Positions 19,713-61,100 of a stretch of 64,000 nucleotides of DNA are shown here, piece after piece; the first letter of the stretch is position 1; each line of letters begins with the position of its first letter. The DNA lies in NCBI GenBank assembly GCA_964572155.1, contig CAZNDZ010000001.1, positions 718,290 through 782,289 of the forward strand, read 5' to 3'. Made by a program: the position numbers and the translations under genes. The DNA comes from an uncultured Planctomycetales bacterium. Lineage in GTDB: Bacteria; Omnitrophota; Gorgyraeia; Zapsychrales; Fredricksoniimonadaceae. Below the pieces are notes generated by a model. That model had not been told where the DNA came from, made no database searches, and saw only the letters and a list, made by a program, of their open reading frames with translations.

Positions 19713-19763
19713 TTCCATAATTTCGTTAGCGCCAAAATACCCTAAATATAAAGAGGTTACGTG

Positions 19764-30073: not shown

Positions 30074-30083
30074 TTTTATTATT

Positions 30084-31328: not shown

Positions 31329-31331
31329 TCT

Positions 31332-33719: not shown

Positions 33720-33722
33720 AGG

Positions 33723-33750
33723 TTGAAACACCTTTCATAAATGATATTAT
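33723..33750 (+). promoter_or_regulatory. Candidate promoter of the secretin operon: TTGAAA-N16-TATTAT.
   Basis: It lies in the 83-nt intergenic region before the 33803 gene. Confidence 0.3.
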
Positions 33751-33802
33751 GAGAATGTTATTTTAATTAAATTGTAACGAATTGTGTTTAATGAGGTTAA
33801 CT

Positions 33803-36036: not shown

Positions 36037-36048
36037 CGGCCTCAACGT

Positions 36049-36837: not shown

Positions 36838-38429
36838 TGAGAATTTTGATGCAAAAAATGTCTTATTCTATGCAAAAATTAATATTAACTGGTTTGTTGG
36901 TTTGCGGATTTATTCCGACGGCAATGGCCAATAATTTGACTGTCTCCAATGTGGCCTTAGGTTCACGTGACCCAGGCACCAAAACATTGGTGATTAATTT
37001 CAATGTGGCATGGGAAAATTCATGGCGCAATAAAATTAACCACGATGCTATTTGGTTGACTCTGCGCCTCAACAGCTCGACAACTTCTCCAGTATATAAG
37101 AAGCTTTGCCAAGTTTCAGCTAGTGGCATCAATCCAGAAGGTTCTTCTATTAGCAATAACAACAGCCTGGAATTATACGTCCCCGAAGATAGAAAAGGTT
37201 TATTCTTACGTCGAAATGCCTATAGCAACATTGGCAATATTGCTACCACCAATGTTTCTGTCACGGTTAAATATGATTCTTGCGGTTTTACTGATAGCGA
37301 TAAAGTTAACGCAAGTGTTTTAGGTTTAGAAATGGTCTTAGTTCCACAAGGATCATTCTTTGCAGGTGATAATGATACAAGCACTGCTTCATTAGATCGT
37401 GGAACTGGTGATGCGCGTCCTTGGTCTATTAATAGTGAAAATCAAATTAGCGTTAGCAATGCAGGTGCCAATGGATACCGTTATGTTTCAAATAATAATG
37501 CTGGTGAATATGCAACGGGAACAACATTCAATGTTCCTGCCACATATCCAAAAGGTTACAAAGCGTTTTACGCGATGAAATATGAAATCACCGAAGGTCA
37601 ATGGGTTGAATTTGTTAATTCGTTAGCGACAGATGCAATGCGCATTAATCATGATATCACTGACAATAATCATAAAAATACAGACAGTGTTGTCAATCGT
37701 AATACGATCGCATGTTCTGGTTCACCGTTAACATGTTCAACAACACGTGCAGAACGTGCTGTAACATTTTTATCTTGGTCAGATGTAGCGGCCTTCTTGG
37801 ATTGGGCTGCGTTGCGTCCAATAACAGAATTAGAATTTGAAAAAGTCGCACGTGGTCCAGTGCTTCCATTAAATGGTGAATATGCATGGGGTTCAGCCAA
37901 TATTAGTGCAGCAACAACAATCAGCGGCAATGAAGATGGTACAGAGACCATCACCAATGGTGGTAATGCCAATGTTGGATTATCAACATTATCAGGCGGC
38001 GATGCCAATGATGGCGTAGATTATCAAACAGGCGCGTTACGCACTGGTATATTTGCGACGGAGAATTCAACACGTGAAAGCTCAGGTGCAAGCTACTACG
38101 GTGCGATGGAAATTTCAGGTAACGTAAAAGAATATGTTGTCACCGTCGGAAATGCTGCGGGTTTAAGTTTCACTGGCGTACATGGCGATGGGTATTTAAC
38201 ATCAACATCAGGTTATGAAGGCAATGCCGATGTAAATGCTTGGCCAGGGTTAGATGCTGTTGCAGCGCGAGGTGTCACAGGTGCAAATGGTTCTGGTTTA
38301 CGTGGTGGATCATGGGCAGATAATGTACAAGCATTGCGTGTTTCAGATCGTTCTCAAGCAGCGTTAACGGTTCATACAGCAAGTAATGATGCCGGTGGCC
38401 GCGGGGCAAGGACATATGATGGTAACTAA
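36837..38429 (+). CDS. Secreted protein with a C-terminal FGE-sulfatase (SUMF1/GldJ/GldK-like) domain, paralog A.
   Basis: It has a signal peptide. The SUMF1-family motifs are WAALRPITELEFEKVARGP and LRGGSWADN. The N-terminal ~250 aa are an unknown beta-rich domain. Confidence 0.6.
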   Translation: MRILMQKMSYSMQKLILTGLLVCGFIPTAMANNLTVSNVALGSRDPGTKTLVINFNVAWENSWRNKINHDAIWLTLRLNSSTTSPVYKKLCQVSASGINPEGSSISNNNSLELYVPEDRKGLFLRRNAYSNIGNIATTNVSVTVKYDSCGFTDSDKVNASVLGLEMVLVPQGSFFAGDNDTSTASLDRGTGDARPWSINSENQISVSNAGANGYRYVSNNNAGEYATGTTFNVPATYPKGYKAFYAMKYEITEGQWVEFVNSLATDAMRINHDITDNNHKNTDSVVNRNTIACSGSPLTCSTTRAERAVTFLSWSDVAAFLDWAALRPITELEFEKVARGPVLPLNGEYAWGSANISAATTISGNEDGTETITNGGNANVGLSTLSGGDANDGVDYQTGALRTGIFATENSTRESSGASYYGAMEISGNVKEYVVTVGNAAGLSFTGVHGDGYLTSTSGYEGNADVNAWPGLDAVAARGVTGANGSGLRGGSWADNVQALRVSDRSQAALTVHTASNDAGGRGARTYDGN

Positions 38430-38430
38430 T

Positions 38431-40050
38431 ATGTTAAAGAAAATTATGATTTTTAGCATCCTCTTATGCGCTGCACCTTTGGTGTATGCAAATAACTTAA
38501 ATATTTCTAATTTAAACGTCTCAACTGTAGATACAGCGTCGGGAACAATTAGCTTTACGTGTGATGTTACCCAAGATAATAGCTGGCGCAATAATAATAA
38601 TTTTGATGCCGTTTGGATGTTTATGAAATATTCAACCGATGCTGGACAAACATGGAGCCATGCCAGTATGTTTGGTTATGGTACGAATCCTGCAGGTTTT
38701 TCTGCCGGCAACAATTTTGCATTAGTTGTACCTAATGATGGCAAAGGATTCTTTTTACAACGTACAGATTTTGGAGCAGGTTCTATTACAGTAAAAAATG
38801 TAAAGTTTGTTTGGAATTATGCTCAAGATGGCGTGCCTGCCAATATCGCAACCGCTGCAAACACCATTCACAAAGCATTTGGTATTGAAATGGTTTATGT
38901 TCCACAAGGTGCATTTTATGCTGGTGATGGCAACAGCTCGTCAGATTTTCGTTTCAAGTCAGGAAGCAGTGACAATAATCCTTGGTACATTCAAGGAGAA
39001 AATGCGATTAGCACAACAAATAGTGCATCTAATGGATATTTCTATCAAAGCACGGGAGCAACAGGTGAAAATAATAGTGGCGATGCATTTTTGGTACCAG
39101 CTTCATATCCAAAAGGCTATGCACCATTTTATTTAATGAAATATGAATTAACTGAAGGACAATGGGTGAGCTTCTTTAATACATTATCAACAGCAGCAAA
39201 ATTAAATCGTGATATTACGTCTGCTAATTTAGGTGGAAAAAATTCTGATGGCGTTGTAAAACGTAATACCATTGCATGGGATTCAACTAATCCAACATTA
39301 CCAGCGACAACATTGCGTCCATCACGTCCAGTAAGTTTTGTATCATGGCCAGATGTTGCAGCCTATGCTGCATGGGCAGGTCTTCGTCCTATCACAGAAT
39401 TAGAATTTGAAAAAGCAGCGCGTGGCAAAGACATTGGTGCTAACGCTGATGAATTTGCTTGGGGTTCATCAAGTTATACAGCGATAGGCACAACAGATAT
39501 CACACCAAATCAAGATGAAGTAGGAACGGAAACATTAAATAGTGCTGCAAATTTAAATCGCAATTCATTGGGATTTAGTACGGGTGATGGGCGTAGTGGT
39601 GGGATTGCATCTACACAAGCAGGTCCAGTGCGTGTCGGCATCTTCGCCGCTGGCGCATCTAATCGTATTAGTTCTGGTGCAGGATTTTATGGCAACATGG
39701 AATTATCGGGCAATTTGGCAGAACCAGTTGTAACCATTGGTCGTACTCAAGGTCGTCAGTTCTTAGCATCACATGGTACGGGTGCATTAACGAGCTTATC
39801 AGGCTATGAAGGAAATGCTGCTAACACGGATTGGCCAGGCTTGGATAATGTGAATGCAAGCCGTGGTATTACAGGTACCGTTGGCATTGGTTACCGTGGG
39901 GGAGATTTTAATTCATCAAATATTCGCACCTATCAATTGTCGTCAAGAACATATGCAGCGAAAGATCCTGATTCTTTAGGATTTTATCAACGTTCCGATG
40001 CAGGGTTTGGTGTTAATCAGGGCGGCCGTTTAGGTCGCAGTGCGCCGTAA
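38431..40050 (+). CDS. Secreted protein with a C-terminal FGE-sulfatase (SUMF1/GldJ/GldK-like) domain, paralog B.
   Basis: It is collinear with paralog A; compare ANNLNISNLNVS with ANNLTVSNVALGS, and ITELEFEKAARGK and YRGGDFN. The ATG at 38431 starts the signal peptide MLKKIMIFSILLCAAPLVYA. The 38386 extension overlaps gene A. Confidence 0.6.
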   Translation: MLKKIMIFSILLCAAPLVYANNLNISNLNVSTVDTASGTISFTCDVTQDNSWRNNNNFDAVWMFMKYSTDAGQTWSHASMFGYGTNPAGFSAGNNFALVVPNDGKGFFLQRTDFGAGSITVKNVKFVWNYAQDGVPANIATAANTIHKAFGIEMVYVPQGAFYAGDGNSSSDFRFKSGSSDNNPWYIQGENAISTTNSASNGYFYQSTGATGENNSGDAFLVPASYPKGYAPFYLMKYELTEGQWVSFFNTLSTAAKLNRDITSANLGGKNSDGVVKRNTIAWDSTNPTLPATTLRPSRPVSFVSWPDVAAYAAWAGLRPITELEFEKAARGKDIGANADEFAWGSSSYTAIGTTDITPNQDEVGTETLNSAANLNRNSLGFSTGDGRSGGIASTQAGPVRVGIFAAGASNRISSGAGFYGNMELSGNLAEPVVTIGRTQGRQFLASHGTGALTSLSGYEGNAANTDWPGLDNVNASRGITGTVGIGYRGGDFNSSNIRTYQLSSRTYAAKDPDSLGFYQRSDAGFGVNQGGRLGRSAP

Positions 40051-40104
40051 TTTTATAAAAATTGAGATTTTGATTTCGTGATCGAACAGAATAAAAAAGG
40101 GTTA

Positions 40105-43100
40105 ATGTTAAAAATTAAATTACAGTTAAAGAAACTGTGCGTCACAACGGTCATATTGATCGTCATGTCGATGGTTTCTTCCTCTGCATTTGCCCAATAC
40201 TCTGGCGGTTCACAAACTGGCAGCGGCGAAGCCACGATCGGTCAAGACATCTTCAAGGGTGGTCGCCAAGGTTCTTCCACCGTCGGAACTTCTAATGGTG
40301 GTTCTGCTTTATCTCATGGCGTAGCAACAAAGCTATATTTCGCTGTACAACCATCAGCGTCAAAACACAGTCACACCTTTGATCGTCAACCTGTAGTTGT
40401 TGTTCAAGATGCGAACGGAAATACAGTAACTGACGATAATACCACCCAAATCAAACTTGAAATCGGCAACAATCCAGGCAATGGGTATATCGAAGGTGTA
40501 ACCACGATTACAGTTGTTAATGGTGTTGCAACATTTTCAAATTTAAACATCAGCAAAGCTGGCCCACTATACACGTTAAAAGCTTCAGCAACAGGTCTTA
40601 CAACAGCATATTCAGAATCATTCGAGATTTATGCAGGTACTGGTCCAAAGGTTGCCGCAGTTTGGGATAATGCTGCAGGAAAATATCGCATTTATACTTG
40701 GGTTGAACAAGATAATCAAAGGCAAGATGTTGATAATACAGGTGATGATACCTGTGATACCCATACTATTTATGCATACGATGGTTCAACAGAAGCAACA
40801 TTAACAATGACAAAAGATGATGCAAATGATTATTGTTACACCGCTTCAGGAGATGCATGGACACCATCTAGTACAGCCAATTCCTATTTTCTTGATTTTC
40901 AGATTACGCTCGATGCTTCTTCTTATAGAACCTATGCTCCATTAGATTTAATTAAACCTGCTTTACAAGGCATTAGAGCGAAGACTGATTTAATTAATTG
41001 GACAAACGTTACAGATATTAAATCTAAAACAGACACGATTAACTGGACAGATGTCACGACCATTAATGCTCATACCAATAGCATCAATTGGCAAGATATT
41101 GGGGTCTTAAAATCAAACGTCAGCAGCATCAAATCAATAACAGACACCATTGATACATCAGTTAATTGGCAAGACATTGTTGTTCAAACGAAATCAGGTG
41201 TAAATTGGAAAGACATAGCTAGCACAACATTAAAGGGTATCAACTGGGATGATTTAAGCGTCTTAACAAATGTTGCGGTGAACTGGCGCGAACTTAATGT
41301 ATTAGGTAGAGCCGGTGTCAACTGGAACGACTTAAATACATTAACGCGCATTGGCGTCAATTGGCGTGATTTTGAAGTATTAGGTCGTGCACGTGTTAAT
41401 TGGTCTTCGATGGCTGAAATGGGTAAGGTTGGTATCAACTGGTATGACATGGCAGTCATGTCTGGTGCCCGTGTTACTTGGTCACAACAAATCAATTGGT
41501 ATAGCTTAGCTGATTTAACCACCGCTGGTGTTAATTGGTCGGATTTAAACGTTATGTCTGCAAAAAATATCAATTGGACCGACATCAATTCATTGAGTCG
41601 TGCAGGCGTTAATTGGAATAATTTCGGTTTATTAACCACAGTAGGTGTTAATTGGAATGATTTAACAGTCTTCTCAAGAACAATTATCAACTGGGATGAT
41701 TACGCCGTTCTTAGTCGTTCTGGAATCAATTGGGCGAACTTTGGTAATTTAACAACATCCAGCATTAACTGGAATGACATCAATGTTTTGTCGAGAAATG
41801 GCGTCAATTGGAACGACTTTGGTGTTCTCTCAAAAGCTGGCGTTAATTGGAACGATCTGCGTATCTTCACCAGAGCTGGTGTTAACTGGCAAGGCTTAAA
41901 TGTTTTTAGCAACACTTACGTTAATTGGGATGGGTTAAACCTTATGTCCACCAACGGCGTCAATTGGACAAATATTGGTTTACTCTCAACTGTAGGAGTT
42001 AATTGGGCAGATCTTAACGTAATGAGCCGCACTGGTGTAAACTGGGGCGATTTAAACCGCATGAGTGGTTTGGGTGTTAATTGGGCGGACTTAAATCGCT
42101 TAAGTGCCGTCGGTGTTAATTGGGCAGATTTAAATGTCTTAACAAAGTCTGGTATTAATTGGTATGACATGAACAGTTTCACAAAGGCGGGAATCAATTG
42201 GACAGACTTTGGTGTATTTAGTAAGACTGGCATCAATTGGAACAATATTAATATTTATGCAAGTGCCAATGTTAACTGGCAAGGGTTATATGTCTTAACA
42301 ACCAGTGGCATCAATTGGTCAAACATTGGAACCATGACAAGTACAGGTATTAATTGGAATGATTTTGCTGTCATGACTGTTAAGAGTTTGAATTGGGAAG
42401 ATTTTGGTATCCTGTCAAAGGTTGGCGTGAATTGGACAGATCTTGGAACATTTAGTAAAGCAGGTGTCAATTGGTATGATATTCAATCCATGGGTACTAA
42501 AGGAATTAACTGGAATGATTTTAATATATTAAGCAAAGCTTCAATTAATTGGACAGATTTTGGTTCTCTTGGCAAAGCAGGTATCAATTGGAACGATATT
42601 GGTGTTCTTTCTAAAAATGGCGTCAATTGGCAAGATTTAAATGTCATGTCTAAAGTAGGTATAAATTGGACTGATTTTAATCGTTTATCTGGTGTAGCGG
42701 TCAATTGGTCTGACATTGGTGTTTTATCAAAGATTGGAGTTAATTGGCAAGATTTCAACGTCATCAGCAAAGTTGGCGTTAATTGGAATGATTTTGGAGT
42801 TTTATCCAAAGCTGGTGTGAATTGGAGAGATTTAAATATCTTAAGCAGCACAGGTGTCAATTGGTATGACATGAATATTTTAAGCAATACTGGAACCAAT
42901 TGGTCTAATTTTGCTGTATTAAGTAAAGTTGGCGTTAATTGGAATGATTTTGGAGTTCTCTCAAAGGCAGGGATCAACTGGAATGATTTGACAGTGATGA
43001 GCCGCACCAATGTCAACTGGGGTGATTTAAATCGCATGAGCAGCCTCGGTGTAAATTGGGCAGATTTAAATCGCATGAGTGGACTTGGTGTCAATTGGCA

Positions 43101-46100
43101 AGATTTCACGGTTTTAACCAAGGCAGGCATCAACTGGACAGATTTTGGTGTGATTGGTAGAACGGGTATTAATTGGTATGACTTAAATGTATTTACAAAG
43201 TCAGGTATTAACTGGACAGATTTTGGGGTTTATACAAAGGTTAGTATCAATTGGGTTTCTTTAGCTTTGCAATCTACTAATGCTGTTAATTGGAACGACG
43301 TTGCCAAACTTTCTGCATCAAATGTTAACTGGAATTTCTTTTCTGCATTGTCTACGACCAATGTTAACTGGAATGACATTACCGTCTTAAGTAAGGCAGG
43401 CATCAATTGGAATGATATCGGTGTCTTAGCTGCCAATGGCGTCAATTGGAATGATCTTAATGTCTTAACTAAGGTTGGTGTTAACTGGAATGATTTTGCG
43501 GTCCTTGGCAAATCCGGTATCAATTGGAGAGATTTAGGCATATTAAGCACCGTTGCGATTAACTGGCAAGATTTTAATGTCATGTCAAAGACAGGTGTGA
43601 ATTGGGGCGATTTAAATCGCATGAGCAGCCTCGGCGTTAATTGGGCAGATTTAAATCGCATGAGTGCGTTAGGCGTTAATTGGGCAGATTTTAACGTATT
43701 AACGCGTTCTGGAATTAACTGGAATGATTTTGGTGTATTAAGCAAAACTGGTGTTAACTGGAATGACTTAGGCGTGTTAGCCAAGGCAGGCGTTAATTGG
43801 AATGATTTTGGAGTCTTAAGCAAGATAGGCATCAATTGGAACGATTTGAATGTTTTAAGTAAAGTTGGCACAAACTGGAGAGATTTTGCAGTATTAAGCA
43901 CTGTCGCTGTTAACTGGCAAGATATGAATGTGATTTCAAAGTCAGGAGTTAATTGGAATGACTTTGGTGTGTTATCAAAATCTGGTGTTAATTGGCAAGA
44001 TCTCAATGTCTTATCTAAAAATGGTATTAATTGGAATGAATTTGTCGTCTTAGGGCGCGCAGGTATTAATTGGCAAGATATCAATGTAATCAGCAAAGTA
44101 GGCGTTAACTGGTCAGATTTTAATGTATTATCCAGAAACGGTGTTAACTGGCAAGATTTGAATGTTTTATCAAAAGCAGGATTAAATTGGCAAGATTTCA
44201 ATGTTTTATCAAAATCAAGAGTCAACTGGCAAGACTTTACAGTTTTAAGTTCTGCAGCTATTAACTGGCAAGATATTAATGTTTTATCTAAGGCTGGTGC
44301 TAATTGGCAAGATCTAAATGTTTTAACTAAAGGTGGTGTCAATTGGCAAGATATTAATACCTTAACTAAAGCGGGTATCAACTGGCAAGATATGAACCAA
44401 TTGACCAGAACAGGTATTAATTGGCAAGATGTGAATGTATTAACAAAGACCGGCGTTAACTGGCAAAACTTTAATGTCTTAACTAGCTCAGGTATTAATT
44501 GGCAAGATTTAAATGTATTAAGCAAGACAGCAATTAATTGGAACGATTTTGGAGTTCTTGCGAAAGCTGGCGTTAATTGGAACGACTTAAATGTTCTTTC
44601 AAAATCTGGTGTTAATTGGAATGATTTTGGTGTCTTAAGTAAAAATGGTGTGAATTGGAACGACTTAAATGTTCTTACCCGCAGCGGCATTAACTGGAAT
44701 GATATGAATGCTCTTTCTAGAGCTGCAGTGAATTGGAATGATTTTAATGTTTTAACCCGCACATCTATCAACTGGCAAGATTTCACATCTTTGAGCAAAG
44801 CTGGCGTTAACTGGAATGATCTTAATGTTTTAAGTAAGACAGGTATTAATTGGCAAGATTTCAACGTGATAACAAGAACCAATGTTAACTGGCAAGATTT
44901 AAATGTTCTCTCAAAAGCTGGTGTTAATTGGAATGATTTCGGTGTATTAACAAACTCTAGCGTTAATTGGACAGGTCTCAATCTTTTAACAACAGCTGGA
45001 GTAAATTGGGCAAATCTAAACGTATTAAGTACAACAGGTGTTAATTGGGCTGATTTTGGTGTCTTAACAAAAATTGGTGTCAACTGGAGTGATTTGAATG
45101 TATTAACAAAATCTGGTGTGAACTGGCAAGATTTTGGCGTATTAAGTAAAGTGGGTGTTAATTGGCAAAATTTCAATGTATTAAGTAATGCAGGTATTAA
45201 TTGGAACGATATTGGTGTCTTAGCCAAAACAGGTATCAACTGGAATGACTTAAATGTCATGTCACGTACCGGCGTAAACTGGGGTGATTTAAATCGCATG
45301 AGCTCATTGGGTGTTAACTGGGCAGATTTAAATCGCATGAGCGGCTTAGGTGTGAATTGGGCAGATTTCACTGTCTTAACCAAGGCTGGCGTTAACTGGA
45401 ATGATTTTGGTGTCATGAGCCGCGTTGCAGCAAACTGGTATGATTTGAATGTCTTTACACGTGCAAGCATCAATTGGAATGATTTTGGTGTATTAGCGAA
45501 GGCAGGTATTAATTGGAATGACTTAAATGTTGTTACCAAAGCCAATGTTAATTGGAATGACTTTGCTGTCTTATCTAAGATTGGTGTTAACTGGCAAGAT
45601 ATGAATGTCTTGACCCGTAATGCTGTTAATTGGTCAGATTTTAGTGTCATGAGCCGTTCAAGTATTAATTGGCAAGGCTTAAATACATTAACAACCGCAG
45701 GCGTTAACTGGACAAACTTAAATGTTTTAAGTTCAACGGGTGTTAATTGGACAGATTTAGGCATTTTGACGACGACAGGTATTAATTGGCAAGATTTTAA
45801 TACTCTGAGTAAAGCTGGCGTCAATTGGAATGATTTAGGTGTTCTTTCTAAAACAAGCATAAATTGGCAAGATTTTACTGTACTTGGAAAAGCAGGAATT
45901 AATTGGAATAGCTTAGGCGTAATGTCTAAGGTTGGTGTCAATTGGAATGATTTCACTGTCATGAGCAGATCCAATGTCAATTGGGCCGATTTAAACAGCA
46001 TGAGCTCATTGGGTGTTAATTGGGCTGACTTAAATCGCATGAGCGGCCTAGGTGTGAACTGGCAAGATTTTACTGTATTAACTAAGGCTGGCGTTAACTG

Positions 46101-49100
46101 GAATGATTTTGGAGTAATGAGCCGTGTTGCAGTTAACTGGTCTGATTTTAACGTCTTAAGCAAGTCTGGTATCAACTGGTCAGACTTAGGTGTTTTAGGA
46201 AAAACAGGCATTAACTGGAATGACTTTAATGTATTGAGCAAGTCTTCTATTAATTGGAATGACTTAGGTGTTTTAGCAAAAGCCGGTGTCAATTGGAATG
46301 ACTTTAATGTATTAAGCAAGTCGGGTGTTAATTGGAACGACCTAAATGTTTTGAGCAAAGCAGGGGTAAATTGGAATGATATTAATGTCATCACAAGAGT
46401 TGGCGTAAATTGGAACGATTTTGTTGTCTTAGGTCGTGCTGGTGTTAACTGGAATGATTTTGGTGTGGTCAGTAAGACAGGTATCAATTGGAACGACTTT
46501 GGTGTTTTAGCCAAGGCTGGCATCAATTGGAACGACTTAAATGTCTTATCTAAAGTTGGCGTCAACTGGAATGATTTTGGAGTTCTTGGTAAAGCAGGGA
46601 TCAACTGGAATGATTTAAATGTCCTTTCACGTGCTGCAGTGAATTGGAGTGATATTAATGTCCTTTCCAAAATAGGTGTTAACTGGCAAGATTTGAATGT
46701 CTTAACTAAGACTGGTGTTAATTGGAGTGACATGGGCGCCTTAAGCAAGGCTGGCGTTAATTGGCAAAACATCGGCATCCTAAGCACTGTCGGTGTAAAT
46801 TGGCAAGATTTTAATACCTTAAGTAAGGCTGGTGTTAACTGGAATGACTTTGGCGTCTTATCAAAGGTTGGCGTCAATTGGAGTGATTTAAATGTCTTAA
46901 GTAAAACTGGTATCAATTGGAATGATTTTGGTGCTTTGTCAAAGATTGGTGTTAACTGGCAAGATTTAAATGTTTTAAGCAAGGCAGGTTTAAATTGGAA
47001 TGACATCGGTGTCTTAAGTAAAACTGGCATCAACTGGAATGACTTTGCTGTCTATTCTAAAGTTGGCATCAATTGGCAAGATTTTGGTGTGTTGTCAAAA
47101 GCTGGCCTAAACTGGACTGACTTTGGTGTCTTAAGTAAGACCGGTGTTAATTGGCAAGATTTAAATGTTCTTACCCGCAACGGCGTAAATTGGAACGATT
47201 TTGGTGTCTTAAGCAAAGCAGGAGTAAATTGGAATGATTTAAATGTATTATCAAAAATTGGTATTAATTGGTCAGATTTCAATGTCTTAACAAAATCCAG
47301 CATAAATTGGAATGACTTGAATGTCCTTTCAAAATCTGGCGTTAATTGGAATGATTTTGGAGTGCTTGCAAAAACAGGTGTTAATTGGCAAGATTTCAAT
47401 GTCTTAACAAGAACCGGAGTTAATTGGAACGATTTCGGAGTTATTTCTAAGGTAGGTGTTAATTGGCAAGACTTAAACACGTTAAGTAAGGTAGGCATTA
47501 ACTGGCAAGATTTTGCAGTCCTCGCAAAAACATCTATCAACTGGCAAGACTTTGCAGTCTTAGGCAAAGCCGGTGTTAACTGGAATGATTTTGGTGTCTT
47601 AAGTAAATCAGGTGTCAACTGGCAAGATTTGAATGTGATGAGCCGCAGCGCTGTAAATTGGGGCGACTTAAATCACATGAGCTCCGTTGGTGTTAATTGG
47701 GCAGATTTAAATCGCATGAGTGGTTTGGGTGTTAACTGGCAAGATTTCACCATCTTGACTAAGGCGGGCGTTAATTGGAATGACTTTGGTGTCATGAGCA
47801 AGGTTGGCGTCAACTGGAGCGATCTTAATGTGGTCAGCAAGATCGGTGTCAATTGGAGTGACTTTACTGTTCTTTCAAAGATTGGCGTGAATTGGCAAGA
47901 TTTGAACGTAATGTCTAAGGTTGCCGTTAACTGGGGTGACTTTGCCGTCTTAAGTAAGACCAGCATTAATTGGAACGACATGAATGTTCTTTCCCGTAAT
48001 AATATCAACTGGAATGATTTTGGTGTGATGAGCAAAGTTGGTGTTAATTGGAATGACATGAATGTTTTAAGCAAAGCCAACATCAATTGGTATGACATGA
48101 ATGTCTTAAGTAAAATTGGTGTTAATTGGCAAGATTTGAATGTTGTTAGCAAGACAGGTGTTAACTGGAATGATTTTGGTGTCATGTCTAAGGTTGGGGT
48201 TAATTGGAATGACTTAAATGTCTTAAGCAAGTCTGGTATCAATTGGCATGATTTCGGTGTGTTAACAAAGTCTGCTGTTAACTGGTCAGGGCTTAATTCC
48301 TTATCAACAGCAGGTGTCAACTGGTCTAACTTGAATTTATTAAGTTCTGCTAATGTCAACTGGACCGACTTAGGTATTTTAAGTAGCGCAGGTGTTAACT
48401 GGAATGACATGGCTCGTTTAACCACAACTGCGATCAATTGGAATGATATTAATGTCTTAACCCGCACTGGTATTAATTGGAATGATTTGAATGTCCTCTC
48501 TAGAATTGGCATGAACTGGGCAGATTATTCTGTTCAAACCCGCGCTGGTATCAATTGGTATGACTTAAATGTGATGAGCCGCACCGGTGTAAACTGGGGT
48601 GATTTAAATCTTATGAGCTCATTGGGTGTTAACTGGGCAGATTTAAATCGCATGAGTGGATTGGGTGTCAATTGGCAAGATTTCAATGTATTGACCAAGG
48701 CAGGCATTAATTGGAATGACTTTGGTGTGATGAGTAAAGTTGGCGCTAATTGGAACGACTTAAATGTTCTAACAAAAGTCGGCATCAACTGGATGGATGT
48801 AAGCGTTCTTGGAAAAACAGGTATTAACTGGCAAGATTTAAATACTTTAAGTAAGTCTGGAATTAATTGGAATGACTTTGGTGTGTTAAGCAAGATTGGT
48901 GTTAACTGGAACGACTTGAATGTCTTAAGCCGTACTGGTGTAAACTGGAATGATGTTGGCGTTCTGTCTAAGACCGGTGTCAATTGGCAAAACATGAATG
49001 TCTTAAGTAATGTAGGTATCAATTGGAACGATATCGGAGTGCTTTCCAAAAATGGTGTTAATTGGAACGACTTAAATGTGCTTACAAAATCTGGCATCAA

Positions 49101-52100
49101 TTGGAACGACATCGGCGTATTCTCTCGCGTAAATATTAACTGGCAAGATTTGAATGTCTTTAGCCGCACCGGCATTAATTGGAACGACTTTGGGGTTTTG
49201 TCAAAGATTGGTGTTAATTGGAGCGATTTGGGCGTCATGTCTAAGGTTGCTGTTAATTGGAGCGATTTTAGCGTGTTAAGCAAGACAGGTTTGAATTGGA
49301 ACGATTTGAATGTCTTGTCTCGCAATAATATCAATTGGAATGATTTTGGTGTGATTAGCAAAGTCGGAATCAATTGGAACGACATGAATGTCTTAAGCAA
49401 AGCAAATGTTAACTGGATTGATGTCGGTGTATTAAGCAAGACAGGTGTTAATTGGCAAGATTTGAATGTCTTAAGTAAGACAGCCATCAACTGGAATGAT
49501 TTCGGTGTGTTATCAAAGGTTGGGGTAAATTGGAATGATTTCAATGTGATTTCCAAGGTTGGTGTTAACTGGAATGACTTTGGTGTATTGAGTAAGATTG
49601 GCGTTAATTGGACAGATTTTGGCTCTTTAACCAAAGCTAATATTAATTGGAATGATCTTAATGTCATCGGACGCACCGGCATCAACTGGAATGATTTCGG
49701 AGTTCTATCTAAGGTTGGGGTGAACTGGAATGACATGAATGTTTTAACAAAGTCCGGGATCAATTGGTATGACTTCAACGTTTTAAGTAAAGCAGGTGTC
49801 AACTGGTATGACATGACGGTCATGACGAGAAACAGCGTCAACTGGGCTGGATTAAGTTCATTAAGTAACGCCGGTGTCAACTGGACAAACTTAGGTATCT
49901 TAACCAGCGCTAATGTTAACTGGTCTGATCTTGGAACCTTGAGTAAAGCGAGCATCAATTGGGTTGACATTGGTTTATTAGGTACCTCTGGTATTAATTG
50001 GTCTGATGTAAGTGTCTTAAGCCGTACAAGTGTTAATTGGAATGACTTAAATGTCTTAACTAAGTCAGGTGTCAATTGGAACGACTTTGGTGTGATGAGC
50101 AAGATCGGTGTTAACTGGTCTGATCTTAATGTCATCAGCCGCACCGGCGTTAACTGGAATGATTTTGGTGTATTAACAAAGACCGCTGTTAACTGGCAAG
50201 ATTTATCCGTCGCCAGCAGAATTGGCGTTAACTGGAATGACTTTGGTGTCTTAAGCAAGATTGGTGTTAATTGGCAAGACATGAATGTCTTAAGCAAGAA
50301 TGGCATCAACTGGTTAGACATGAATGTCTTAACCAAGGCTGGTGTCAACTGGTCTGATGCAGCTACCTTAAGTAAAGCCAGCATCAACTGGAATGATTTT
50401 GCCGTCCTCGGTAAAACAGGTATTAATTGGTACAACTTCAATGTATTAAGTCGCGTTGGTGTTAACTGGAATGATTTGGCTGTCATGAGCCGTAGCAGTG
50501 TGAATTGGTCTGACTTAAATAGCATGAGCTCCTTAGGTGTTAATTGGGCAGATCTAAACCGCATGAGCGGCCTTGGCGTTAACTGGTCAGATATTACCGT
50601 CCTTTCTAAATCAGGCATTAATTGGAACAATTTCGGGGTCCTAAGCACGGTTGGTATTAATTGGAACAGTTTAAGCGTGATGGGCAACGTTGGTGTTAAC
50701 TGGAATGATATTCAAGTCATCAGCAAGACAGGCATTAATTGGAACGACTTAAATGTATTAACCAAGACCGGCGTTAACTGGAATGATTTTGGTGTCATGA
50801 GCAAGGTTGGTGTTAACTGGAGTGATCTTAATGTCTTAAGCCGCACCAGCATCAACTGGAATGACATGAATGTCTTAACCAGAATTGGTGTCAACTGGCA
50901 AGATTTGAATGTGTTAAGCAAGACTGGCGTTAATTGGAATGATTTTGGTGTCATGAGCAAGATCGGTGTCAATTGGCAAGATTTCAATGTGTTAAGCAAG
51001 ACTGGCGTTAACTGGAATGATTTTGGCGTGATCAGTAAAACAGGCATTAATTGGTATGACTTAAATGTCTTAACAAAATCAGGTGTTAACTGGAATGATT
51101 TTGGTGTCTTAAGTAAGGTTGGCGTTAACTGGTATGACATGAATGTCATCACCCGCAATGGCATCAACTGGAATGATTTTGGAGTTCTATCGAAGGCGGG
51201 CGTTAATTGGAGCGACATGAATGTTATCACTCGCATTGGCATGAACTGGAGTGACATGAGTGTCTTGAGCAAGACAGGTTTAAATTGGAGCGATATTGGC
51301 GTCTTAAGCAAGACAGGTGTTAACTGGAATGACTTAAATGTCGTTAGCCGCACGGGCATTAACTGGAATGACTTTGGTGTCTTGTCAAAGATTGGCGTTA
51401 ATTGGAGCGACATGAACGTTTTATCTAAGACAGGTATCAATTGGTATGATTTTAATGTCTTAAGCCGTGCGGGCATCAATTGGCGCGATTTAAATATTTT
51501 GACGAAAACCAGCGTCAATTGGGTTGGTTTGAGTTCATTGAGTAATGCTGGTGTTAACTGGACAAACTTAGGCACATTAACCAGTTCAAGCGTGAATTGG
51601 TCAGATCTTGGTGCGCTAAGTAATGCGGGTGTTAATTGGAATGACTTTGGTGTCTTAAGCAAGACAGGAATTAACTGGCAAGATTTGAATGTCTTTACCC
51701 GTGCCAGCATTAATTGGAGCGATTTCGGTGTCCTATCTAAAACAGGCATTAATTGGTATGACTTAAATGTTGTAACAAAAGCTGGATTAAATTGGAATGA
51801 CATCGGTGTGCTTTCTAAGAATGGTATCAATTGGAATGATATCGGCGTCTTATCTAAGGTTGGTATTAATTGGAATGATATCAGCGTTGTTAGCAAAACA
51901 TCTGTCAACTGGTCTGACTTAAATGTGTTGACCAAGGCTGGTATTAATTGGAATGACTTCGGGGTTTATAGCAAGGCTGGTATCAACTGGTATGACATGA
52001 GCGTCTATAGCAAGGTTGGTATCAATTGGTATGACATGAATATTTTGACAAAGTCTGGTGTTAACTGGAATGACTTAAGCATCTTGAGTAAGACGGCTAT

Positions 52101-55100
52101 CAACTGGAGTGATTTCGGGGTCATGTCAAAGACAGGCGTTAACTGGTATGACTTAAATGTCTTATCAAGGGTTGGCGTTAATTGGTATGACATGAATGTA
52201 CTGACTCGTAATAGCATCAACTGGAACAGCATTGCATCCTTAAGCTTAAATGGCATCAATTGGTCTAACTTCACAGTGATGTCACGCGCAGGTGTTAACT
52301 GGGTAGATTTAGGTGTCTTGTCTACATCATCTGTCAATTGGACAGGGATGAATGTCCTGTCTAATGCCAGCGTCAACTGGATCGGTATCGCTGATTTATC
52401 TCATACCAATGTTAACTGGGCTGCGTTACAAGATATTTCTTCCGCAAATGTTAACTGGGAAGGTATCGGTGTCTTAAGTAATTCTGGCGTTAATTGGAGC
52501 GACATCACGGTCTTAAGTAAGAACGGCATTAACTGGAGCGACCTATCTGTATTAGGTAGAACGGGCATCAATTGGAATGATATTGGTGTTGTTTCTAAGA
52601 CAGGCATCAATTGGAACGATTTGAATATCTTAAGCAAGACAGGCATCAATTGGTATGACATGAATCGTCTTTCTAACACAGGCATTAACTGGAATGATAT
52701 CGGCGTGTTAAGTAAGAACGGCGTTAACTGGAATGATTTCAATGTCATTAGTAAAGTTGGTATCAATTGGAGCGATTTAGGTGTGTTAGGCAAGACAGGC
52801 ATCAATTGGTATGACATGAATGTCTTGTCTAAGACAAATATCAATTGGAGCGATTTAAATGTCTTAACCAAGACAGGTATCAATTGGTATGACATGAACA
52901 TCTTGAGCAAGACCGGCATCAATTGGTATGACATGAATGTCTTAAGCAAGACAGGCATCAATTGGAATGACTTTGGTGTGTTATCGAAGAATGGCATTAA
53001 TTGGAATGACATGGGCGTCTTAACTAAAGTTGGCATCAATTGGAGCGACTTCAATGTTCTCTCTAATTCAGGGGTCAATTGGTATGACATGAATGTCTTA
53101 ACCAAGTCAGGTGTTAATTGGTATGACTTAAATGTCTTATCTAAGAATGGCATTAACTGGAATGATTTTGGTGTCTTGTCAAAGGTTGGCATCAACTGGA
53201 ATGACTTTAACGTCTTAAGCAAGAGCAATATCAATTGGTATGATTTCAACGTCTTAAGCAAGGTCGGCGTTAATTGGAGAGACTTAGGGATCTTAACCAA
53301 GTCCTCAATCAATTGGCAAGGATTGAACGACTTATCAAATTCAGGTGTCAACTGGACAAACTTAAGCATCTTAAGTGCTGCGTCCGTTAACTGGAGCGAT
53401 TTTGGAACATTAAGTAAAGCTGGCGTTAACTGGAATGATTTAGGTGTCTTAAGTAGAACAGGTGTTAATTGGAGCGATTGGGGCGTTTTAACTAAGACTG
53501 GTATAAATTGGAGTGACTTAAATGTCTTAAGCCGTACAGGATTAAATTGGAATGACATCGGTGTCTTAAGTAAAGTTGGCGTGAATTGGAGTGATTTGAA
53601 TGTTGTCAGCCGCACAGGTGTCAACTGGAATGATTTTGGTGTGCTCTCAAAGACAGGCATTAACTGGGGCGATTTAGGTGTGTTATCTAAGACAGGTGTT
53701 AACTGGTATGACATTAATGTCTTAAGCAAAAATAATATCAACTGGAATGACATTGGCGTATTAGCCAAGGCTGGCATTAACTGGTATGACTTCAACATTT
53801 TAAGCAAAGCTGGCGTCAACTGGTATGACTTAAATGTCTTAGGCAAATCTGGCATCAATTGGTATGACATGAATGTTTTAACCAAGACAGGTATCAATTG
53901 GAACGATTTAGGTGTATTGGCAAAAGCTGGCATCAATTGGAGCGACATGAATGTCATGAGCCGCACCGGCGTAAACTGGGGCGATTTAAACCGCATGAGC
54001 AGCTTGGGCGTTAATTGGGCAGACTTAAATCGCATGAGCGGCATTGGTGTCAACTGGCAAGATATCTCGGTATTAAGTAAGAATGGCATCAACTGGAATG
54101 ACTTCGGTGTCTTAAGCAAGACAGGTATTAATTGGAATGACATTGGCGTGTTATCGAACACAAGCATCAATTGGTATGACTTTAACGTCTTAAGCAAGAC
54201 CGGCATCAACTGGAATGATTTAGGTGTGATTTCCAAGACCGGCATCAACTGGAGTGATATCGGTGTCTTAGCAAAGACGGGCATCAACTGGAATGATATT
54301 AATGTGGTCAGCCGCACCAATATCAACTGGAGTGATTTTACAGTCTTAAGCAAAACAGGTATTAATTGGAATGATATCAGCCGCTTATCTACCGTCGGTG
54401 TAAATTGGAACGATATTGGTGTGTTATCAAAGAATGGTATCAACTGGAACGACTTAAATGTCTTAAGTAAAACAGGCATCAACTGGAATGACTTTGGTGT
54501 GATGTCAAAGGTTGGCGTCAACTGGTACGACATGAATGTCTTAAGTCGCACCGGCATTAACTGGAATGACGTAAATACATTAACCCGCAACGGCATCAAC
54601 TGGAAAGATTTGAGTGTCTTTAGCAATGCCGCGATCAACTGGCAAGGTTTGAATGACTTGTCGAACTCTGGTGTTAACTGGACCAACTTAAGTATCTTGA
54701 GCTCAGCGTCGGTTAACTGGAGTGATTTAGGCGCATTAAGTAAAGCCGGCGTTAACTGGAATGACTTTGGTGTCTTAAGCAAAACAGGCGTCAACTGGAG
54801 CGATTTAGGTATCTTAAGCAAGACAGGCATCAATTGGTATGACATGAATGTCTTATCAAAGACTGGTATCAACTGGTATGACTTCAACGTCTTAAGCCGT
54901 GCCGGCGTCAATTGGGGTGACTTGAATGTTGTTAGCCGCACTGGCGTTAACTGGAATGACTTCGGAGTTCTCTCTAAGACGGGTATTAACTGGAATGATT
55001 TAGGTGTCTTGTCAAAGACAGGTGTCAATTGGTATGACTTCAATGTCTTAAGCCGTGCTGGTGTTAATTGGGGCGATATGAATGTGATCAGTCGCACCGG

Positions 55101-58100
55101 CATCAACTGGAATGACTTTGGCGTCTTATCAAAGGCTGGCGTTAACTGGCAAGATTTCAATGTGGTCAGCCGCGCAAACATTAATTGGTATGATTACAAT
55201 GTCTTAAGCAAAGCTGGTATCAACTGGAATGATTTCAATGTCCTTTCTAAGGCTGGCGTCAACTGGTATGACTTAAATGTGTTGGGCAAGTCTGGCATCA
55301 ATTGGTATGACATGAATGTTTTAACCAAGACAGGTATCAATTGGAACGATTTAGGTGTATTGGCAAAAGCTGGCATCAATTGGAGCGACATGAATGTCAT
55401 GAGCCGCACCGGCGTAAACTGGGGCGATTTAAACCGCATGAGCAGCTTGGGCGTTAATTGGGCAGACTTAAATCGCATGAGCGGCATTGGTGTCAACTGG
55501 CAAGATATCTCGGTATTAAGTAAGAATGGCATCAACTGGAATGACTTCGGTGTCTTAAGCAAGACCGGTATTAACTGGAATGACATTGGTGTCTTAGCCA
55601 AGACAGGTATTAATTGGTATGACTTCAACGTCTTAAGCAAGACCGGCATCAACTGGAATGATTTAGGTGTGGTCTCCAAGACGGGCATCAATTGGAGCGA
55701 TATCGGTGTCTTAGCAAAGACAGGCATCAACTGGAATGACATTAATGTGGTAAGCCGTGCAAATATCAACTGGTATGACTTTAACGTCTTAAGCAAGACA
55801 GGCATCAATTGGAATGACATGAGCCGCTTGTCAACAGTTGGTATCAACTGGAATGACATTGGTGTGTTGTCGAAGAATGGCATCAACTGGAACGACTTAA
55901 ATGTCTTAAGCAAAACAGGCATCAACTGGTATGACTTCAATCGTCTCTCTAATACAGGCATCAATTGGAGCGACATGAATGTCTTGAGCCGCACAGGTAT
56001 CAATTGGAATGATTTCAATGTCTTAAGCAAGACAGGTGTTAACTGGAGAGATTTGAGCGTCTTTAGTAATGCCGCGATCAACTGGCAAGGTTTGAATGAC
56101 TTATCAAATTCTGGTGTTAACTGGACTAATTTAAGTATCTTGAGTGCAGCGTCTGTCAACTGGAGTGACTTAGGTGCATTAAGTAAAGCAGGCGTTAACT
56201 GGAATGACTTTGGTGTCTTAAGCAAAACAGGCATCAACTGGAGCGATTTAGGTATCTTAAGCAAGACAGGCATCAATTGGTATGACATGAATGTCTTATC
56301 AAAGACTGGTATCAACTGGTATGACTTCAACGTCTTAAGCCGTGCCGGCGTCAATTGGGGTGACTTGAATGTTGTTAGCCGCACTGGCGTTAACTGGAAT
56401 GACTTCGGAGTTCTCTCTAAGACGGGTATTAACTGGAATGATTTAGGTGTCTTGTCAAAGACAGGTGTCAATTGGTATGACTTCAATGTCTTAAGCCGTG
56501 CTGGTGTTAATTGGGGCGATATGAATGTGATCAGTCGCACCGGCATCAACTGGAATGACTTTGGCGTCTTATCAAAGGCTGGCGTTAACTGGCAAGATTT
56601 CAATGTGGTCAGCCGCGCAAACATTAATTGGTATGATTACAATGTCTTAAGCAAAGCTGGTATCAACTGGAATGATTTCAATGTCCTTTCTAAGGCTGGC
56701 GTCAACTGGTATGACTTAAATGTGTTGGGCAAGTCTGGCATCAATTGGTATGACATGAATGTTTTAACCAAGACAGGTATCAATTGGAACGATTTAGGTG
56801 TATTGGCAAAAGCTGGCATCAATTGGAGCGACATGAATGTCATGAGCCGCACCGGCGTAAACTGGGGCGATTTAAACCGCATGAGCAGCTTGGGCGTTAA
56901 TTGGGCAGACTTAAATCGCATGAGCGGCATTGGTGTCAACTGGCAAGATATCTCGGTATTAAGTAAGAATGGCATCAACTGGAATGACTTCGGTGTCTTA
57001 AGCAAGACCGGTATTAACTGGAATGACATTGGTGTCTTAGCCAAGACAGGTATTAATTGGTATGACTTCAACGTCTTAAGCAAGACCGGCATCAACTGGA
57101 ATGATTTAGGTGTGGTCTCCAAGACGGGCATCAATTGGAGCGATATCGGTGTCTTAGCAAAGACAGGCATCAACTGGAATGACATTAATGTGGTAAGCCG
57201 TGCAAATATCAACTGGTATGACTTTAACGTCTTAAGCAAGACAGGCATCAACTGGAATGACATGAGCCGCTTGTCAACGGTTGGCATCAACTGGAATGAT
57301 ATCGGTGTCTTAGCCAAGACTGGTATTAATTGGAACGACTTAAATGTCTTAACCAAGACAGGCATCAATTGGAATGACTTTGGTGTGTTGTCAAAGGTTG
57401 GCGTTAATTGGAATGACTTAAATGTCTTAAGCCGCACTGGCATCAATTGGAATGACGTTAATACGTTAACACGCAATGGTATTAACTGGAGAGATTTGAG
57501 CGTCTTTAGTAATGCCGCGATCAACTGGCAAGGTTTGAATGACTTATCAAATTCTGGTGTTAACTGGACTAATTTAAGTATCTTGAGTGCAGCGTCTGTC
57601 AACTGGAGTGACTTAGGTGCATTAAGTAAAGCAGGCGTTAACTGGAATGACTTTGGTGTCTTAAGCAAAACAGGCATCAACTGGAGCGATTTAGGTATCT
57701 TAAGCAAGACAGGCATCAATTGGTATGACATGAATGTCTTATCAAAGACTGGTATCAACTGGTATGACTTCAACGTCTTAAGCCGTGCCGGCGTCAATTG
57801 GGGTGACTTGAATGTTGTTAGCCGCACTGGCGTTAACTGGAATGACTTCGGAGTTCTCTCTAAGACGGGCATTAACTGGAATGACTTAGGTGTGTTAAGT
57901 AAGAATGGTGTCAATTGGTATGATTTCAATGTCTTAAGCAAGTCTGGCATCAATTGGAACGATATGAATGTCTTAACCAAGACTGGTATCAACTGGTATG
58001 ACATGAATGTCTTGAGCAAATCTGGCGTTAACTGGTCTGACCTAAATGTATTAACCAAGACAGGCATCAATTGGTATGATTTCAATGTCCTAAGCAAGGC

Positions 58101-61100
58101 TGGCATCAATTGGAATGATTTTGGTACATTGACCAAGACGGGTATCAATTGGTATGACTTTAACATCTTAAGTAAGACAGGCATTAACTGGAATAACTTT
58201 GGTGTCTTAAGTAAGGTTGGTATTAATTGGAATGACATGTCGGTGATGAGCCGTGCTAGCGTCAACTGGGCTGATTTAAATAGCATGAGCAGCTTGGGCG
58301 TCAATTGGGCTGATCTTAATCGCATGAGCTCAATCGGTGTTAATTGGAATGACATCGGTGTCTTAAGCAAGACAGGTATCAACTGGAATGATTTTGGAGT
58401 CATCTCTAAGACAGGTATTAACTGGAATGACTTTGGTGTGTTGACCAAGGTTGGTGTTAACTGGAACGATTTAGGCGTGCTTGCCAAGACAGGTATCAAT
58501 TGGAGCGATTTCAATGTCTTAACCAAGACAGGTATTAATTGGAGTGATTTAGGTGTCTTAGCCAAAACAGGTGTCAATTGGAACGATATTGGCGTCTTAG
58601 CCAAGACAGGTATTAATTGGAATGACTTAAATGTCTTAAGCCGTACTAATATTAACTGGAGTGATTTCGGGGTCTTAAGCAAGAATGGCATTAACTGGTA
58701 TGACATGAATGTCTTATCTCGTGCAGGTATCAACTGGAATGACATTGGTGTGTTGGCCAAGACAGGTGTCAATTGGAATGACTTTGGTGTCTTAAGCAAG
58801 ACAGGCATCAACTGGAATGATTTAGGTGTCTTAGCTAAGGCAAGCATTAATTGGAGCGACATCGGCGTCTTAAGTAAGACAGGTGTTAACTGGAATGACT
58901 TAAATGTCATTAGCCGCACAGGTGTCAATTGGAATGACTTTGGTGTCTTGTCAAAGGTCGGCGTCAATTGGAATGACTTAAATGTCTTAAGCCAATCCAG
59001 TATTAACTGGCAAGATTTCAATGTCTTAAGCAAGACAGGCGTTAATTGGAGAGATTTAGGCGTACTAACCAAGTCTTCTATTAACTGGCAAGGTTTAAAT
59101 GACTTAACCAACTCTGGTGTAAACTGGACTAACTTAAGTATCTTAAGTGCAGCGTCGGTAAACTGGAGCGACCTAGGTGCATTAAGTAAGGCTGGCGTAA
59201 ACTGGAATGACTTTGGTGTTCTTTCAAAGAATGGCATCAATTGGAACGACATGAATGTCATGAGCCGCACCGGTGTAAACTGGTCAGATTTAAATCGCAT
59301 GAGCAGCTTGGGTGTCAATTGGGCAGATTTGAACAAGATGAGTTCCATCGGTGTCAATTGGCAAGACATTGGCGTCTTGAGCACAACGGGCATTAATTGG
59401 CATGACTTTGGTGTCTTAAGTAAGACTGGTATTAATTGGAATGATTTTGGAGTCATCGGTAAGATGGGTATCAATTGGTCAGATTTTACGGTGCTCTCCA
59501 AGGTTGGTATTAATTGGAACGACATGAGCGTATTAAGCAAGAACGGCATTAACTGGAATGATATTGGTGTCTTAGCAAAAACAGGCATCAACTGGAATGA
59601 CCTCAATGTGATTAGCCGCACCAATGTTAATTGGAGCGATATCGGCGTCTTAAGTAAGACTGGTTTAAATTGGAATGACTTAAATGTCTTAACCCGTACA
59701 GGTATCAATTGGAGTGACTTTGGGGTGTTAGCTAAGACAGGCGTCAACTGGAATGACTTAGGTGTCTTGAGCAAAACGGGTGTTAATTGGAACGACATCG
59801 GTGTCTTAGCAAAGACAGGCATCAACTGGAATGACTTTGGTGTCTTAAGCAAGACAGGTATTAATTGGAATGATTTCGGTGTGTTGGCCAAGTCAGGCAT
59901 CAACTGGAATGATTTTGGTGTGATGACAAAAACAGGTTTAAATTGGAATGACTTAAATGTCCTAACTAGAACTGGCATTAATTGGTATGACATGAATCGT
60001 CTCTCTAATACAGGCATCAACTGGAATGATATGGCACGCTTGTCAACGGTTGGCATCAACTGGAATGATATCGGTGTCTTGGCAAAGACAGGTATCAACT
60101 GGAATGACTTAAATGTCTTAAGCAAGACAGCGATCAACTGGAATGATATCGGTGTCTTAAGCAAGAATGGTATCAATTGGAGCGACATGAATGTCTTAAG
60201 TCGCACAGGTATTAATTGGAATGATTTCAATGTCTTAAGTCGCGTTGCTGTCAACTGGAGAGATATGAGTGTATTAAGCAATGCATCCATTAACTGGAGA
60301 GGCTTAAATGACTTATCAAATTCAGGTGTTAATTGGACTAACTTAAGCATCTTAAGTGCTGCCGCTGTTAACTGGAGTGATTTTGGTGCCTTAAGTAAAG
60401 CTGGTGTCAACTGGAATAACTTAGGTGTAATGAGCACCGTTGGTATTAATTGGAATGATTTTAGCAAGTTGTCTCAGACGGGTATTAATTGGAATGACTT
60501 AAATGTTTTGTCTAAGTCTGGTATCAACTGGTCTGGTATTGATGTGTTATCTAGTGCTGGTGTTAACTGGCAAAACTTTGGGGTATTAACCAATGCTGGC
60601 GTCAATTGGACCAATATGAGTTTATTGTCAGCCTCGGCGATCAATTGGACGGATTTAGGTGTCATGACCACCATTGGCGTCAATTGGAATGATATTCAAG
60701 CGTTGACGACAAAGGGCGTGAATTGGAATGATTTCGGTGTCTTAAGTAAGGTTGGTATTAATTGGAACGACATGAGCGTCTTGGCTCGCACAGGTATCAA
60801 CTGGAACGATTTCAATGTCTTAAGCCGTAACGGCATCAATTGGTACGACATGAATCGTCTTTCTAATACAGGTATCAACTGGAATGATATTAGCGTGTTG
60901 GCTCGCACGGGCATCAACTGGAATGACCTAGGTGTGGTTTCCAAGACGGGCATTAATTGGAATGACTTTGGTGTCTTAAGCAAGAACGGCATCAACTGGA
61001 ATGATTTAGGGGTCTTGTCAAAGACAGGTCTTAACTGGAGTGATTTCGCGGTGATGGGTAAGACAGGTATTAATTGGAATGATTTGGGCGTATTATCTAA

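Follow-up and report, generated by a model that had tools for sequence, protein, structure and literature searches.

Concerted evolution is exemplified by the higher-order repeats of alpha-satellite and, in bacteria, by gene conversion between tufA and tufB and between rrn copies. Two groups of repetitive bacterial proteins are also close to the locus described here. Periscope proteins are bacterial surface proteins that vary in length and have tandem repeats of very high identity (Whelan et al. 2021, PMC8201768), and giant or long proteins have been reported from the Omnitrophota (West-Roberts et al. 2023, bioRxiv 10.1101/2023.11.21.568195; Nielsen & Lui 2026, bioRxiv 10.64898/2026.06.07.730766). 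The locus lies in a stretch of 64,000 nucleotides, hereafter the window, from contig CAZNDZ010000001.1 of an omnitrophotal assembly (GCA_964572155.1, positions 718,290 to 782,289 of the forward strand). It is a giant gene whose product carries an array of 13-residue repeats and, within this array, three copies of a 37-unit block (A, B and C) form a higher-order repeat (Table 1). The copies are mosaics of tracts of different ages, and the three-copy architecture is shared with the closest relative found. The best explanation, which is held to be likely, is an ancient 37-unit higher-order repeat in three copies, whose number has not increased on balance and whose sequences were made alike in recent times by intragenic gene conversion or unequal recombination. 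Such a process, the concerted evolution of a higher-order repeat, is of a known kind and its mechanism is ordinary; the gene family is undescribed.

The locus resembles concerted higher-order repeats in that the monomers are ~60% identical while copies at the 37-unit period are far more alike. Similarly, the identical tracts have sharp boundaries, and paralogs within a genome are more alike than orthologs. In contrast, the repeat is here protein-coding and in frame, evolves with omega (dN/dS) of 0.03–0.13 and is present in three copies only, and both copy number and total length appear conserved between species. The idea put forward in a preliminary description of this DNA, a recent triplication with likely variation in length, corresponds to the Periscope concept, but the gene, as far as it has been compared, does not show the defining features of that class. 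As in Periscope proteins, the giant protein is repetitive and carries N-terminal Ig-like domains, and the identity of its repeat DNA would allow intragenic recombination; its signal-peptide-like N-terminus and the secretin gene upstream would agree with secretion. Periscope repeats are, however, whole folded domains, near-identical along the array, whose number has been observed to vary from strain to strain. The present array is mostly ~60% identical and built from 13-aa units, with just three 481-aa blocks that are partly identical, and the single cross-species comparison gives a conserved length. The locus also has affinities with the Omnitrophota proteins. The relatives are metagenome-assembled genomes (MAGs) of Omnitrophota, the predicted secreted protein is very long and repeat-rich with a secretin gene just upstream, and the gene fits the 'tandem-repeat scaffold' class without Pfam annotation. 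It differs from the Archaeovorin and Dockerin-type giants (≥30,000 aa) in its size of ~8,000 aa and in that ~4 kb of ~24 kb is involved in homogenisation rather than expansion. The N-terminal, repeat and C-terminal parts scanned gave no Pfam match to dockerin, TSP3, HEAT or SecA-DEAD, and the translated parts, read without a predictor, show no evident transmembrane helix.

Mosaic structure of the 37-unit copies

Comparison of the giant gene with itself at every offset from 1 to 23,900 (117-nt scan windows, at least 90% identity) reveals substantial self-match only at offsets of 1,443 bp (37 units) and 2,886 bp, between 53,797 and 57,940; two other offsets contribute 2–5 scan windows each. Copies A, B and C are arranged head to tail and in frame, 1,443 bp corresponding to 37 x 39 bp and thus to 481 aa in each copy. 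Identity amounts to 92.9% between A and B over 1,443 nt, and to 95.4% between B and C and 92.3% between A and C over 1,150 nt. Random in-register 1,443-nt segments of the array provide a background of 60.5 ± 1.7%, with a maximum of 67.2%, and chance is excluded as the source of the identity between the copies. The preliminary description had noted long nucleotide-identical stretches at the 1,443-bp offset, and exact runs of 275, 1,018 and 388 bp are indeed present within 53,848–57,869. The positions that it offered as examples (53881, 55324 and 56767) all fall within the tract identical in three copies, and its placing of the copies in frame and 37 units apart is equally sound. At the offset of 2,886 bp the exact runs comprise 53848–54122 and 54791–54983. 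Diverged tracts of 76–92% nucleotide identity lie between the identical ones. High identity spans ~2.8 copies, the last 292 nt of C constituting an old unconverted tail that is 73% identical to B.

Numbering of the nucleotides within each copy (index 0–1442) resolves this pattern into six blocks. All three copies are identical at index 0–289 and again at index 958–1150. At index 290–580 and index 766–957 copy A differs and B equals C. All three copies differ at index 581–765, where B is the outlier, while at index 1151–1442 A equals B and C is just 73% identical to both. The longest mismatch-free runs observed are reached in 0 of 20,000 permutations in which mismatches were placed uniformly. 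The identical tracts, bounded sharply within diverged copies, thus exceed chance expectation.

The tracts also differ widely in age. Nei-Gojobori estimates of synonymous divergence (dS) between A and B are 0.87 at index 290–580 and 0.46 at index 766–957, with omega of 0.03–0.05, and among the copies dS attains 1.05–1.6 in the middle patch, whereas it is 0 in the identical tracts. An omega of 0.03–0.13 over the diverged tracts denotes strong purifying selection, and most differences occupy third codon positions. The substitution spectrum is ordinary, with transitions exceeding transversions (30:23 and 63:37). Mutagenesis by a diversity-generating retroelement was considered and is ruled out, because the differences lack an adenine bias. 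A donor for the patch of copy B was sought across the array, and no segment exceeds 78% identity. The donor search rules out recent internal conversion as the origin of the patch, which is read as retained old sequence. Homologous recombination between the copies must be very recent, because the tracts of 1,018, 388 and 275 bp are without any difference.

Comparison with the closest relative and competing explanations

The closest sequence found is contig CAZFNI010000004.1 (L002) of MAG CAZFNI01, which carries the 3' portion of the ortholog and whose best segment reaches 77% aa identity. Locus L015, likewise from this MAG, holds the 5' portion of the gene; it aligns with the window locally only, at 47.6–50.2 kb, and its contig end does not overlap L002. 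The FGE-domain proteins flanking the ortholog are 72% and 77.5% identical to those of the window, and synonymous sites are saturated between the window and the relative, the proportion of synonymous differences (pS) being 0.71–0.84. The two best ungapped diagonals, 51,261 and 51,144, lie 3 units apart over 12.8 kb (window 51.3–64.0 kb against L002 1–12852). Alignment at the level of units is collinear between window 51727–59916 and L002 466–8655, with single-unit gaps only, which cancel to leave both ends on one diagonal. Identity in this alignment is 69–78% per segment (71–74% over the long ones) against a background of 59%. The flanks on each side of the block select one common diagonal uniquely, with z = 6.0 upstream and z = 5.1 downstream.

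Two landmark motifs allow the copies themselves to be located in both genomes, namely the GVNWGDLNRMSSL-GVNWADLNRMSG doublet (NRMS) and INWQGLNDLSxSGVNWxNLSILS (QGL). Three NRMS doublets and three QGL motifs are present in the equivalent region of each genome, and addition of 51,261 to the L002 landmarks gives window positions 53974, 56080, 56860, 57523 and 59083 exactly. In both genomes 74 units separate the first doublet from the third, divided as 37+37 in the window and 40+34 in L002. Thus, for the one relative available to this comparison, copy number and positions are conserved, and the window has no extra copies or length. The three-copy block is, on the evidence of the alignments, older than the split of the window and L002 lineages, because the landmarks coincide and the 74-unit distance is common to both. 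More distant relatives have no recognisable landmark motifs, and the block is therefore dated no deeper than this split.

Within each genome the copies have evolved together. Outside the middle patch the window copies are 86–100% identical to each other, block by block, while in the head blocks (index 0–580) they share 88–100% identity among themselves but only ~74–80% with any L002 copy. The L002 copies share 75–86% mutual identity in the head blocks, one tract between its second and third copies (b and c) reaching 98%, and L002 has its own 283-bp tract of at least 97% identity at the same 1,443-bp offset. Species-specific residues are common to the paralogs, as in FSNAA...SNS...TNL...SDLGA of the window against FSNAH...SSS...ANL...ADFGT of L002. 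Paralogs of the same genome are thus more alike than positional orthologs of the two genomes. The third L002 copy (c) is the best match for all three window copies, and a doublet-to-QGL spacing of 17 units is found in all three window copies and in this third copy. In the unconverted middle patch each L002 copy is nearest its positional counterpart (0.674 for B with the second L002 copy, against 0.571 and 0.598), a signal that is weak but consistent.

Under the favoured explanation the three-copy layout would be old, predating the split from the nearest available relative. Out-of-register homologous recombination would then have overwritten long tracts of one copy with the sequence of another, through non-reciprocal gene conversion or through unequal exchanges that restored the same length. 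The outcome would be perfectly identical stretches of 275–1,018 bp beside tracts keeping their old divergence, that is, concerted evolution of a higher-order repeat with copy number unchanged on balance. Gene conversion rather than compensating unequal crossovers is the route that we infer. The affinity of all window copies to the third L002 copy, together with its 17-unit spacing, suggests that B and A received sequence of the C type.

Several points weigh against recent homogenisation of an old block. Conversion is indistinguishable from duplication followed by compensating deletion. The internal spacings differ, being 26+14 and 14+20 units in L002 and 17+20 and 17+20 units in the window, so the history also holds rearrangements at the level of units, and the equality of the 74-unit totals could be partly coincidental. 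A single relative is sufficiently close and, away from the landmarks, positional orthology amounts to 69–78% identity per segment against a background of 59–61%. The patch of copy B, which has no identifiable donor, could be an import from another strain. Finally, the three-copy sequence is that of the assembly, unverified by reads or conspecific assemblies.

A single recent in-frame triplication by unequal recombination, with copy number still varying, was the explanation offered in the preliminary description, and it now retains a small probability. Exact identity over 275–1,018 bp at offsets of 1,443 and 2,886 bp, in frame, agrees with it, as do the confinement of the differences between B and C to a 230-bp patch and the proximity of all copies to copy c of the relative, which a derivation of A and B from C would produce. 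A single recent triplication predicts, however, uniformly near-identical copies, and therefore the mosaic pattern does not fit. The dS values of 0.46–1.6 extend over 30–45% of the unit, and near-identity along the whole length of the copies is not observed. In addition, three copies stand at identical coordinates in the relative, without a length difference of 2,886 bp between the flanking anchors. The gain of two copies is thus not borne out by these mosaic copies with dS of 0.46–1.6 in unconverted tracts, nor does copy number differ in the relative, whose three copies occupy matching positions and whose array has the same net length there. The proposal of expansion or contraction by unequal recombination holds as regards very recent recombination between the copies but is not supported as regards recent copy gain. 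Careful alignment gives a divided answer on the divergence of the copies, with identical tracts on one side and tracts at 76–92% identity (dS 0.46–1.6) on the other. The positions taken as older flanking copies also separate, 53310 being the landmark motif of the preceding older super-repeat while 54640 lies within copy A.

Assembly or polishing could in principle have created the identical tracts or the third copy, the true copies being uniformly diverged or fewer and the rest the product of consensus building, polishing or strain chimerism. The sequence is evidently metagenome-derived, and such repeats are known to cause mis-assembly. All public homologs found are fragments or lie on contigs cut within the repeat array, and repeat-driven fragmentation is noted in the preprint of West-Roberts et al. 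(2023, bioRxiv 10.1101/2023.11.21.568195). The risk of short-read collapse pointed out in the preliminary description is real, in that identical tracts of such length would defeat short-read assembly. A Logan short-read contig (L001, SRR10036063, equivalent to window ~28386–42798, seen in three samples) encodes an identical upstream protein and breaks off after 2.7 kb of the giant gene, a long way before the A/B/C block. An artefact is nevertheless unlikely. The 24-kb frame is intact across the region, the tracts are sharply bounded, and substitutions in the diverged ones are normal and selection-filtered. Moreover, the relative, which was assembled independently, repeats the three-copy layout and has a near-identical tract of its own at that offset, and a further relative on a 1.29-Mb contig has similar tracts.

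Independent parallel triplications of one ancestral 37-unit block in both lineages are highly improbable: although they would leave paralogs closer within than between genomes, concerted evolution predicts this equally, while the same total length and five landmarks on identical coordinates would need chance, the copies of the relative (75–86% identical in the head blocks, and unequal at 40 and 34 units) fit old copies rather than a simple 37-unit duplication, and the unconverted patch copies of the window track their positional counterparts.

Sequence of the same species was sought in four ways. Metagenome contigs contain no match to an exact 51-mer of the shared tract, and a search of them anchored on the C-terminal tail yielded only relatives at 35–46% identity. 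A protein search with copy B gave nothing above 61% identity, and a scan of genome contigs gave nothing above 77%. The cross-species comparison, based on one relative, points to conservation of length rather than variation.

The repeat family, the giant gene and its neighbours

The array contains 579 NW motifs, 573 of the 578 spacings between them being exactly 13 aa, and N and W never vary among the 24-unit segments that were aligned. Older super-repeats extend across the array (44965–60292) as about a dozen blocks, in which NRMS doublets and QGL/TNL motifs recur every 15–116 units, mostly every 30–50. Searches of Pfam and NCBIfam with the repeat return repeat-inflated matches only (for example Ntox33, Lysostaphin_N and RimP), with 0 stretches passing alone, and a profile search of the PDB gives nothing meaningful. 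Among 1.84 billion representative proteins a profile of the repeat matches only 439 clusters. Those homologs that are named come from Omnitrophota MAGs, and nearly all are truncated by contig ends; the longest match in the search of representative proteins measures 4,701 aa, and the giant gene is among the longest members found. The family is one of undescribed, rare, putatively secreted Omnitrophota proteins. AlphaFold2 (AF2) modelling of 24 units, with an alignment of 81 in-register paralogous segments, gives a pLDDT of 55 and a pTM of 0.18; the low-confidence model, with one short helix and a loop per unit, is too weak for use.

Other members of the family have high-identity tracts at higher-order periods of their own. 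One relative (L004, 462–3660) displays a 43-unit period with at least 97% identity over ~1.5 kb, and a second (L033, 8764–9849) has high-identity tandem tracts with a 12-unit period. In a third, on the 1.29-Mb contig CAVYLG010000003.1, a ~2.9-kb stretch (L020, 8393–11266) has periods of 39, 78 and 156 bp, and high-identity tracts occur at many offsets (39, 78, 156, 858, 1,248 bp and others). Inter-repeat recombination is therefore a general property of the family. The A/B/C block is the most recently homogenised of the super-repeats of this array.

The giant gene occupies a stop-free frame on the + strand from 40066 to 63999 that is open at the window end. Its likely start is the ATG at 40105, with AAGGG just before it. 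The total size is about 24 kb or more (>24 kb, ~8,000 aa), and the gene probably ends ~115 codons beyond the window, because the tail of the L002 ortholog measures ~245 aa. Pfam matches of this ortholog tail are to coiled-coil-type families only, all below threshold. In the AF2 model of the N-terminus residues 2–22 form a single helix followed by a disordered linker. The Ig-like pair gave no match in Pfam, while Foldseek relates it to generic tandem Ig/FN3 modules (titin Z1Z2, NCAM FN3, Sap S-layer domains and Bap). To judge by its predicted signal peptide and Ig-like domains, by the neighbouring secretin gene and by the attached lifestyle reported for the phylum, the product is probably a secreted, extended protein and a putative surface or adhesion fibre. 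On the - strand the array is crossed by long open reading frames, the largest of 1,276 aa (43230–47033, 48534–50687, 52401–55181, 56637–60467 and others); these are by-products of periodic coding on the + strand and not genes.

Table 1 Coordinates of the giant gene, its repeat copies and tracts, and its upstream neighbours in the window
Feature	Position	Strand	Remarks
Secretin gene	34396-36036	+	Upstream neighbour of giant gene
TPR protein gene	36049-36837	+	Upstream neighbour of giant gene
FGE-sulfatase-domain genes, two	36837-38429 and 38386-40050	+	Upstream neighbours of giant gene
Giant coding sequence	40105-63999	+	7,965 codons within window; open frame, AAGGG-ATG, L002 C-terminal tail, dN/dS well below 1
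Predicted Sec signal peptide, MLKIKLQLKKLCVTTVILIVMSMVSSSAFA followed by Q	40105-40194	+	Read off translation
Two tandem Ig-like beta-sandwich domains	40330-40944	+	Residues ~76-280; AF2 pLDDT mostly 88-98
Repeat array, ~580 units of 39 bp / 13 aa	40972-63610	+	Consensus xVLSKxG[IV]NWxDx
Higher-order repeat copy A	53833-55275	+	37 units
Tract identical in all three copies, 275 bp	53848-54122	+	= 55291-55565 = 56734-57008; holds NRMS landmark doublet
Central part of copy A, divergent from B and C	54123-54790	+	Differences mostly at third codon positions
1,018-bp tract	54791-55808	+	= 56234-57251; spans tail of one copy into head of next
Higher-order repeat copy B	55276-56718	+	37 units
Unconverted patch of copy B	55809-56038	+	53 differences from C; all three copies differ there
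388-bp tract	56039-56426	+	= 57482-57869
Higher-order repeat copy C	56719-58161	+	37 units; homogenised up to 57869
Non-repeat C-terminal tail, start	63611-63999	+	Runs on past window

The two FGE-sulfatase-domain genes (36837–40050) directly precede the giant gene, overlap by 44 nt and are paralogous, with ~41–43% mutual identity. Two FGE-domain genes also stand directly 5' of the ortholog in the relative (L015 5–3104), and the products of this pair could be modifying enzymes for the repeat protein. A short gene with an OSCP domain (ATP synthase delta subunit-like, ~31332–31673) lies 5' of the glycosyltransferase-secretin-FGE-giant gene cluster. In the relative (L002 14677–16212) an ATP synthase alpha gene is found 3' of the giant gene, with one hypothetical gene between them. 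Given these two ATP synthase genes, one upstream and the other downstream in the relative, the ~33-kb cluster appears to sit within an atp operon. A second large uncharacterised secreted protein of the window is encoded at 19761–24302 (1,513 aa); it has a signal-peptide-like start and no Pfam match.

Array length and the dating of repeat expansion

A member of a rare, unannotated repeat family here lies beside a secretin gene, and the phylum is believed to live in attachment to other cells. The loose end of greatest interest, and one worth following, is the apparent conservation of array length between synonymously saturated lineages. A tentative and rather doubtful suggestion is that array length is under selection, the protein serving as a fixed-length fibre, spacer or ruler with an undescribed 13-residue NW repeat fold, which could let ultra-small Omnitrophota cells reach or hold a partner cell. 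The suggestion derives from the 74 units, the five coincident landmarks and the net difference of 3 units over 12.8 kb, all maintained despite saturation and shuffling. The 4-kb stretch that holds the three copies is flagged as in need of long-read support. Tandem blocks of a giant repeat gene may agree in every nucleotide without any new expansion having taken place. At this locus identity would mark gene conversion within an old, length-conserved architecture, which is of consequence where strictly identical tandems are used for dating repeat expansion in the long genes of Omnitrophota.

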